Source: Dehalococcoidia bacterium (lineage in GTDB: Bacteria; Chloroflexota; Dehalococcoidia; SM23-28-2; RBG-16-64-32). From it: DNA of 64,000 nucleotides. The notes under the pieces were generated by a model. The model searched no databases, had not been told where the DNA came from, and was given only the letters and a program-made list of their open reading frames with translations. Numbering within the stretch: the first letter of the stretch is position 1; each line of letters opens with the position of its first letter. A program made the position numbers and the translations under genes. Of the stretch, positions 22,886 to 22,974 are shown in pieces. The stretch is taken from the NCBI GenBank assembly GCA_040882565.1, contig JBBEAZ010000018.1:1635-65634 (forward strand), given 5' to 3'.

Positions 22886-22897
22886 GTTTTACCTCCG

Positions 22898-22969
22898 GTG
22901 GAAAATGGAACTGGGAACATGGAACAAGAGCCGGGAATCCTTGTTCCCAGTTCCTGGTTCCTGGTTCCT
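22898..22969 (-). repeat. groES-groEL intercistronic hairpin built from GGAAC heptads paired with their complements
   Basis: In mRNA sense the region reads GAACCAG GAACCAG GAACUGG GAACAAG ...spacer... UUGUUCC AUGUUCC CAGUUCC AUUUUCC, followed by the Shine-Dalgarno GGAGGU and the groEL AUG. Confidence 0.6.
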
Positions 22970-22974
22970 CTTCG

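Follow-up and report, generated by a model that had tools for sequence, protein, structure and literature searches.

The window analysed here is a stretch of 64,000 nucleotides from a Dehalococcoidia bacterium (assembly GCA_040882565.1, contig JBBEAZ010000018.1), and the element in question is the 89-nt spacer between its chaperonin genes groES and groEL. Judged from its sequence, this spacer appears to be an intercistronic hairpin made of simple sequence repeat (SSR) material, and what makes it noteworthy is that the shape seems to be kept clade-wide with the repeat unit replaced repeatedly. The reading favoured here, tentatively and at slightly less than even chances, is that the spacer is the local version of a clade-wide groESL messenger RNA (mRNA) hairpin, built from heptads and kept for its shape, with a putative role in processing or stability. 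The clade that keeps the hairpin is a group within Chloroflexota, made up of Dehalococcoidia-type metagenome-assembled genomes (MAGs) with a tailed GroES.

An earlier reading made from the DNA letters only (the sequence-only reading) had described the spacer as four GGAAC heptads and four complementary heptads placed before the groEL Shine-Dalgarno (SD) sequence. The sequence bears this out, with the qualification that the fourth unit of the 3' arm holds UUUCC, not GUUCC. In mRNA sense the spacer reads CGAAGA, 5' arm, loop, 3' arm, ACC, GGAGGU and AAAAC, followed by the AUG, and its parts are as follows.

22886-22974, minus strand: groES-groEL spacer, 89 nt
22900-22968, minus strand: whole hairpin (5' arm, loop and 3' arm), from RNAfold
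22941-22968, minus strand: 5' arm, units GGAACCA, GGAACCA, GGAACUG and GGAACAA, from the sequence and phased-pattern matches
22928-22940, minus strand: loop GGAUUCCCGGCUC, 13 nt, from the sequence and the fold
22900-22927, minus strand: 3' arm, units UUGUUCC, AUGUUCC, CAGUUCC and AUUUUCC, from the sequence and phased-pattern matches
22891-22896, minus strand: groEL SD GGAGGU, 5 nt 5' of the AUG and outside the hairpin

The hairpin is located inside the operon, beginning 6 nt past the groES stop codon and ending 3 nt short of the groEL SD. RNAfold, which the sequence-only reading had proposed as a check, predicted the in-register structure for the 89-nt spacer at -32.3 kcal/mol (z -2.5 to -2.7). 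When a few flanking bases were included (101 nt), the predicted energy was -36.1 kcal/mol (z -3.4), and 0/200 dinucleotide shuffles matched this fold. The fold of the 89-nt spacer consists of four helices of 4-9 bp with 2x2 or 3x3 internal loops between them, and in the minimum free energy (MFE) structure the inner helix is lengthened by two outer loop bases on each side of GGAUUCCCGGCUC. The resulting stem has about 26 pairs, 22 Watson-Crick plus wobble, and has the size of the duplexes in RNase III-type hairpins (about 20 bp or more, internal loops allowed). An independent assembly of the same organism, the Dehalococcoidia MAG GCA_040903865.1 (locus L001), carries an identical spacer, and the spacer is therefore not an assembly artefact.

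Searches for familiar elements returned little. Rfam gave zero matches in the whole window at gathering thresholds and, with E-values up to 10 between 22700 and 23700, just sub-threshold matches to miRNA-like hairpins. A promoter consensus scan of 21000-23700 on both strands found no promoter-like site. The spacer stem is followed by ACCGGAGGUAAAAC and not by the U tract of an intrinsic terminator, and a terminator scan of the spacer returned one weak internal site of 7 pairs only. An internal promoter or intrinsic terminator in the spacer was rejected because a consensus match is absent. Further, the hairpin has no resemblance to the CIRCE operator (controlling inverted repeat of chaperone expression), a perfect copy of which stands separately at 23465-23491.

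The main support comes from relatives. The groES-groEL junctions of 80 loci from metagenomes and of 80 species-representative genomes were gathered, and every spacer was extracted; those whose GroEL N-terminus was at least 80% identical to that of the window formed a clade set of 65 distinct spacers. The genomes of this set are titled Chloroflexota or Dehalococcoidia, and GroES is N-terminally tailed in most of them. Spacer lengths fall into two groups, 57 at 75-138 nt and 8 at 11-55 nt, with none at 56-74 nt. All 57 long spacers contain a hairpin of 14-33 Watson-Crick pairs, which starts a median of 4 nt past the groES stop (at most 15 nt in 53/57); its 3' end lies a median of 20 nt from the groEL start, where just the SD fits in between. 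Once the hairpin is folded out, an effective spacer with a median of 25 nt is left, which cannot be told apart from the median of 31.5 nt for the plain spacers of 72 outgroups (p 0.12); SAR202 and Dehalococcoidales genomes with spacers of 11-50 nt are among these outgroups. Length is constant inside subgroups (116 nt in four, 93-94 nt in four and 129 nt in three), and the copy-number polymorphism between close relatives that slippage would produce was not seen at the groESL spacer. About 73% Watson-Crick pairing is kept between lineages whose spacers can no longer be aligned. The check proposed in the sequence-only reading, whether relatives keep the heptad structure, is therefore passed for the architecture, found in 57/65 distinct spacers, and not for the sequence.

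At least 14 repeat cores occur among the clade spacers. GGAAC is the commonest, and the others include GGAAG, GAAAC, GGAGC, GAGAC, GGAGU, CACAG, CGCAG, CCAGU, GUUGG and GUAAC. The closest syntenic relatives, L002 and L007, use a reversed-polarity GCUC/GAGC type, and between these two a U-A pair is exchanged for C-G. A single covariance-style alignment of all spacers was dropped since the units cannot be aligned, and complementarity was assessed at the level of units instead. In 28/57 spacers, two or more copies of a 5-mer in the 5' half are matched by two or more copies of its reverse complement in the 3' half. These cases span 14 cores, and on this sequence comparison the complementarity of the arms can be taken as covariation of whole repeat units. 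Thus the repeat unit turns over between lineages and the architecture stays.

Moreover, the self-complementarity is tied to this position. When the long spacers were scored as hairpins, z against their own shuffles had a median of 3.7 and exceeded 3 in 36/57, whereas for 42 heptad-array regions elsewhere in these loci the median z was 0.2 and 5/42 exceeded 3 (Mann-Whitney p~1e-9). Among 51 heptad arrays found in clade loci outside groESL spacers, just 7 had an inverted partner within 120 nt, and the clearest of these stand where convergent genes meet, next to a small XRE-type gene; a terminator-like hairpin would be expected there. Self-complementarity is specific to the groESL spacer, and arrays elsewhere are mostly direct. 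In the spacer itself, 7-nt repeats persist only as self-complementary sets, that is, units, loop and complementary units.

Several individual loci deserve mention beside these counts. Heptad hairpins away from the groESL spacer were seen at L012 1109-1204, L050 573-697 and L016 76-129; in L012 and L050 the hairpin is at a convergent junction next to a small XRE-type helix-turn-helix gene that lies 5' of groES, and the array is read into the C-terminus of this ORF (GTGDTGHGTRNTGDGD...). Some short-spacer clade members (L003-L006 and L092, 55 nt) have what appears to be a lone pyrimidine-rich 3' arm, TCCCACTCCATCCCAAACTCAC, as does L051 at 613-631 (GTTCCATGTTCCATCTTCC). These sequences suggest that the 5' arm was secondarily lost. 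Outside the clade, a soil metagenome locus whose GroEL is 58% identical (L078 624-750) has a hairpin of GACATCY heptads (-46.9 kcal/mol, z -3.9), and its spacer holds additional direct GACATCY copies. A related Hyphomicrobiales MAG (L157 6111-6222) has GACATCY units too, and their fold is not significant (z +0.7).

The sequence-only reading had also reported that the spacer heptad forms a 19-copy array elsewhere in the window, and this array is real. The phased pattern GGAACNNGGAACNNGGAAC, which stands for three in-phase GGAAC units with at most one mismatch, matched the window 25 times against 0.00 expected from 100 shuffles. All 25 matches belong to four loci, the spacer and the three arrays given below, and Tandem Repeats Finder (TRF) likewise reported period 7 at four window loci.

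28130-28268, no strand assigned: array of 19-20 heptad copies, TTCCYTG on the plus strand, TRF period 7/14/21
17145-17171, plus strand: 4-copy GGAACNN array in a 62-nt gap between divergent genes
41750-41780, no strand assigned: 4-copy array, GTTCC on the plus strand, between convergent tsaD-like and DUF2851 genes

All three are direct repeats and are found in either orientation. Their contexts are a divergent promoter or leader region, a co-directional gene pair and a convergent gene pair. The array at 17145-17171 ends 23 nt 5' of the ATG of a Lactamase_B gene. The longest one sits between a rimI-like gene and an open reading frame (ORF) at 28293-29114, for which there is no Pfam match and no obvious SD. 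Contig JBBDUN010000007.1 of GCA_040903865.1 stops within this same array (at about 28210 in the window), and such arrays therefore break assemblies. The heptad richness of the clade is thus a practical assembly issue, with at least one public assembly broken within an array.

Period-7 arrays occur throughout the genomes of this clade, and the link between the heptad and groESL is not specific. An array was counted when at least three copies had the same 5-nt core, and about 0.6 Mb of related-genome loci was compared with about 0.85 Mb of more distant genomes. The clade loci have 8.3 period-7 arrays per 100 kb and the outside genomes 0.24 per 100 kb, a difference of about 35-fold. Periods 5, 6 and 8-12 showed no enrichment in the clade loci, with periods 8-12 at or below 0.8 per 100 kb. 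Unrelated heptad units occur side by side, even in a single locus. Head-to-tail 7-nt copies at many loci, lineage specificity and a preference for period 7 are features of heptanucleotide SSRs of the LSSR/STRR (long SSR/short tandemly repeated repetitive) kind, and all are found here; a literature search returned no report of heptanucleotide repeats in Dehalococcoidia. Certain units, (TCGAAAN)3, (CACCTNA)n and (ACTGTCC)n, are shared by different genomes (L019 400-418; L032 1459-1477 and 2404-2422; L036 934-952; L101 7730-7748), and further loci with shared heptad units are L015, L090, L094, L104, L037, L046 and L091. Some heptad units may be conserved elements instead of random slippage products.

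The favoured reading, a heptad-built groESL mRNA hairpin conserved in shape, would work as follows. Heptad slippage would supply insertions into the spacer, and only those that fold out and keep stop codon and ribosome-binding site (RBS) close would survive there. The extra 50-110 nt would be transcribed within the groESL mRNA and folded out as an imperfect duplex of 22-33 bp, so that stop codon and RBS would come to lie about 25 nt apart, as in ordinary groESL spacers. The duplex would then be a double-stranded determinant of processing or stability. One option is a substrate of RNase III type, comparable to the hmw1A leader of Haemophilus influenzae, in which one arm of a long, imperfect hairpin consists of the transcribed (ATCTTTC)n; that hairpin is cut by RNase III, with an increase in expression (PMC12721329). 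Another option is a barrier that would let the groES and groEL segments decay independently. Being so close to the stop codon, the hairpin might also affect groES termination, 30S loading on groEL and re-initiation, and effects on termination, loading or processing would help to set the GroES:GroEL ratio. In each case the hairpin would act in addition to, and independently of, the transcriptional control by CIRCE/HrcA upstream. The role of the element is probably processing, stability or translational coupling. Because relatives keep a repeat-built hairpin at the same position, the proposal of a translational or processing element is reasonable in so far as it concerns a cis-acting mRNA element; its heat-modulated or heptad-protein-modulated form found no support, as will be seen below.

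Several observations weigh against this reading. Covariation of single columns, for which the subgroup alignments A1-A3 were used as the units cannot be aligned across lineages, was weak (terms +1.1, -0.4 and +0.3 kcal/mol), and broken pairs were about as common as compensated pairs. Spacer identity is 0.77, compared with 0.78 at four-fold degenerate sites of the flanking genes (32 pairs), and purifying selection on the primary sequence of the spacer was rejected on this ground. In a strand-neutral hairpin alignment, the transition-type mismatches of the mRNA strand were more often A.C (98) than G.U (67; p 0.02); the G.U signature of a sense strand is thus absent and mildly reversed. The antisense strand was predicted to fold better in 24/34 spacers, with an average advantage of 2.8 kcal/mol (p 0.003). 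The A.C excess and the antisense folding are together the opposite of the usual signature of a sense-RNA helix, and this strand asymmetry somewhat weakens the sense-RNA reading and leaves a DNA-level or antisense reading alive. The hairpin is also dispensable, since 8/65 clade lineages are without it. Finally, the tight position of the hairpin ends is equally expected from an insertion into an ancestral spacer of about 25 nt, whatever its function. The short effective spacer is uninformative as evidence for translational coupling, given that such an insertion produces an equal geometry.

Many of these points are shared by a serious rival, in which the hairpin is a neutral by-product. Heptad slippage with occasional fold-back (template-switch) duplication would here create a permissive, long-lived repeat locus with no role in expression. 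Evolution of the spacer at the synonymous rate, weak single-column covariation, a sense strand without G.U excess, loss of the hairpin in eight lineages and the abundance of heptad arrays throughout the clade genomes all agree with it. It is nevertheless considered rather unlikely. The self-complementarity is strongly enriched here relative to the 42 other array regions and survives at least 14 changes of repeat core, the clade set has neither long non-hairpin spacers nor intermediate lengths, and most Watson-Crick pairing is retained where the spacers of different lineages have become unalignable.

The strand asymmetry would be in keeping with an element of the other strand or of the DNA itself, such as a structure in an antisense transcript, or else a cruciform or template-strand hairpin with an effect on how the highly expressed operon is transcribed or replicated. 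Both the better antisense folding and the excess of A.C over G.U speak for it. The 5' arm is purine-rich in 23/34 spacers and pyrimidine-rich in 3/34, and this purine-first polarity is equal on both strands. The strand effect is small, however, and comes from spacers that are not independent of one another. The absence of a promoter-like site on either strand in the scanned interval and a position against stop codon and RBS, as expected of an mRNA element, also speak against it. Elements of this kind are not known to have such an antisense or DNA-level function, and this explanation is considered improbable.

Equally improbable is a stronger version of the mRNA reading, in which heptads serve this clade as a dedicated and actively maintained material from which RNA structures are built, and the groESL hairpin is an evolvable rheostat for the GroES:GroEL ratio of an essential machine of housekeeping. 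Here a transcription- and RNase III-coupled process, as proposed for hmw, or a heptad-templating activity would expand and homogenise both arms. Arm length and mismatch pattern would set the ratio, and the A.C-over-G.U bias would be a sign of tuning or a footprint of the mechanism.

The sequence-only reading had further raised modulation by a protein, which would here mean recognition of the GGAAC heptad. The heptads would be bound by an oligomeric protein of the CsrA, TRAP, Csp or S1 type that recognises a specific RNA or DNA sequence, and the hairpin would sequester or present the sites. The units do have a conserved 5-nt core with a 2-nt variable spacer, they recur at four window loci with the array of about 19 copies as a possible sponge, and GGA motifs resemble CsrA sites. 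Similar proposals have been made for TAACTGA repeats (PMC4679880). Against a protein site, closely related lineages have different cores in the same place, several unrelated units occur within one locus, and arrays are found in either orientation at divergent, tandem and convergent junctions. The GGA motifs of the spacer lie in the stem and not in loops, as CsrA/RsmA sites would, and relatives use the non-GGA cores CACAG, CGCAG and CCAGT. There is also no RBS association, since only 3/42 arrays stand next to an RBS and ORF compared with 8% of random positions, and heptad arrays as RBS-proximal elements like TAACTGA were rejected on this count. Protein recognition of the heptad is thus hardly probable.

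Heat modulation, the other form given to the proposal, has the smallest chance of these readings. An RNA thermometer, or heat-modulated translational switch on groEL, is suggested by groEL being a heat-shock gene and by an imperfect helix with periodic internal loops that ends 3 nt from the SD. In addition, when flanks are included in the fold, the SD of this window is predicted to be partly paired (P 0.44-0.68) to a CCUC at the groES 3' end. This pairing is nearly unchanged from 20 to 55 C and exceeds P 0.5 in just 2/57 relatives, and an SD clamp through the groES 3' CCUC was dropped as a general mechanism. Both SD and AUG lie outside the hairpin, whose core helix remains in the MFE prediction even at 75 C; mean predicted pairing across the hairpin goes from 0.65 at 20 C to 0.57 at 75 C. 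A thermometer match in Rfam is likewise absent. ROSE and fourU thermometers hold the SD or AUG in a helix that is short and weak and comes apart at 30-45 C. What the groESL spacer shares with them is an imperfect helix that a heat-shock gene has close to its RBS, but the stem of about 26 pairs does not include the SD, neither SD nor start codon lies within a labile helix, and no melting is predicted in the physiological range. A likeness of the GAA/TTC blocks to eukaryotic heat-shock elements was dismissed, because the core varies between lineages and bacteria are not known to have a heat shock factor.

The operon around the spacer is composed of the following features.

22975-23403, minus strand: groES, long form of 142 amino acids (aa) (Cpn10, E 1.5e-29)
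21257-22885, minus strand: groEL, 542 aa (Cpn60_TCP1)
23465-23491, minus strand: CIRCE operator TTAGCACTC-N9-GAGTGCTAA, 5' of groES, perfect consensus match
21211-21236, minus strand: GC-rich stem-loop 20 nt past the groEL stop, likely operon terminator

The CIRCE that the sequence-only reading had placed upstream of groES is thus present and perfect, as measured against the CIRCE consensus. Just 5' of it lies a candidate sigma-70-type promoter (TTGCGC-17 nt-TAATAT, 23497-23530, minus strand), which was read by eye and scores under the threshold of the consensus scan. The stem-loop after groEL is GAAAGCCGGGC-GGUU-GCCCGGCUUUC and is followed by CUGCUACC, without a U tract; terminators of this genome may have no U tract. 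The groES stop codon is TAA (22975-22977). The long form begins with an ATG at 23403 that is preceded by a strong SD, GAGGAGGAG, although NCBI annotates only a 110-aa short form. Its N-terminal tail of 45 aa, rich in Lys, Ala, Pro and Arg, is encoded at 23269-23403 (minus strand), in part by a 15-nt tandem repeat (23318-23378); there is also a weak match to Pfam HC2 (histone H1-like). Relatives have a GroES of 125-158 aa, compared with about 95-100 aa for ordinary GroES. Elsewhere in the window, two tandem paralogous ORFs on the plus strand (45796-49176 and 49400-52783; 1126 and 1127 aa) were seen, and Pfam recognises a single thrombospondin type-3 repeat in each.

Chaperonin operons belong to the best-studied operons of bacteria, and their regulation is usually placed upstream (CIRCE/HrcA or sigma-32). 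Here a whole clade of uncultured soil and sediment bacteria seems to keep a large structured insert between groES and groEL, which would be rebuilt from the current heptad of each lineage. It would show clearly, in nature, how a structure can be conserved when its sequence is not, and it is made from microsatellite-like material that is usually deemed noise or a phase-variation switch. If the processing role is true, the hairpin would offer a simple model for post-transcriptional setting of subunit ratio in Chloroflexota. It would also carry the recent H. influenzae finding of an SSR hairpin cleaved by RNase III, made for the adhesin of a pathogen, over to an operon of core housekeeping.

As repeats, the arrays belong with known families. 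Heptanucleotide repeats are the commonest long SSR class in prokaryotes (PMC4679880, PMC4692102, PMC6749651), and described families include the cyanobacterial STRR, TAACTGA in Beggiatoaceae (PMC4679880), GGGAATC in Xanthomonas (PMC4692102) and (GATAGRA)n in Chloroflexus (PMC6749651). The likeness lies in lineage-specific intergenic 7-nt arrays at many loci per genome without mobile-element features. The known families are nearly all direct with a single unit per genome ('Maribeggiatoa' has 169 direct sets and 1 indirect), whereas the Chloroflexota clade has many coexisting units and an inverted pair at one conserved position.

In position, the hairpin can be compared with elements inside operons. 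Intercistronic stem-loops that set differential operon expression include the repetitive extragenic palindromic (REP) sequences and bacterial interspersed mosaic elements (BIMEs) in malE-malF, the RNase III sites of T7 early genes and rpsO-pnp. Like these, the groESL spacer has a stable hairpin between cistrons near the upstream stop, and its size and imperfections suit a substrate of RNase III or a barrier to exonucleases. REPs form a conserved sequence family with hundreds of copies, whereas no sequence of the spacer is conserved across lineages and inverted heptad pairs are rare elsewhere. The groESL mRNA of Agrobacterium tumefaciens is reported, in work by Segal and Ron from 1995, to be cleaved between groES and groEL in a heat-shock-dependent manner. 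This would be the same operon and the same junction, with post-transcriptional separation on top of CIRCE control; it concerns another phylum, and reportedly no repeat-built hairpin is described there.

The hmw1A leader differs from the groESL spacer in several respects. It has one repeat arm paired with a G-rich stretch, where both arms of the spacer are repeats, and it is a 5' untranslated region, where the spacer hairpin is intercistronic and has a role proposed from sequence. Its copy number is phase-variable and drives antigenic variation, whereas the spacer lengths are stable in subgroups. What the two have in common is a heptameric SSR hairpin just 5' of a coding region, in which the structure counts and not the sequence.
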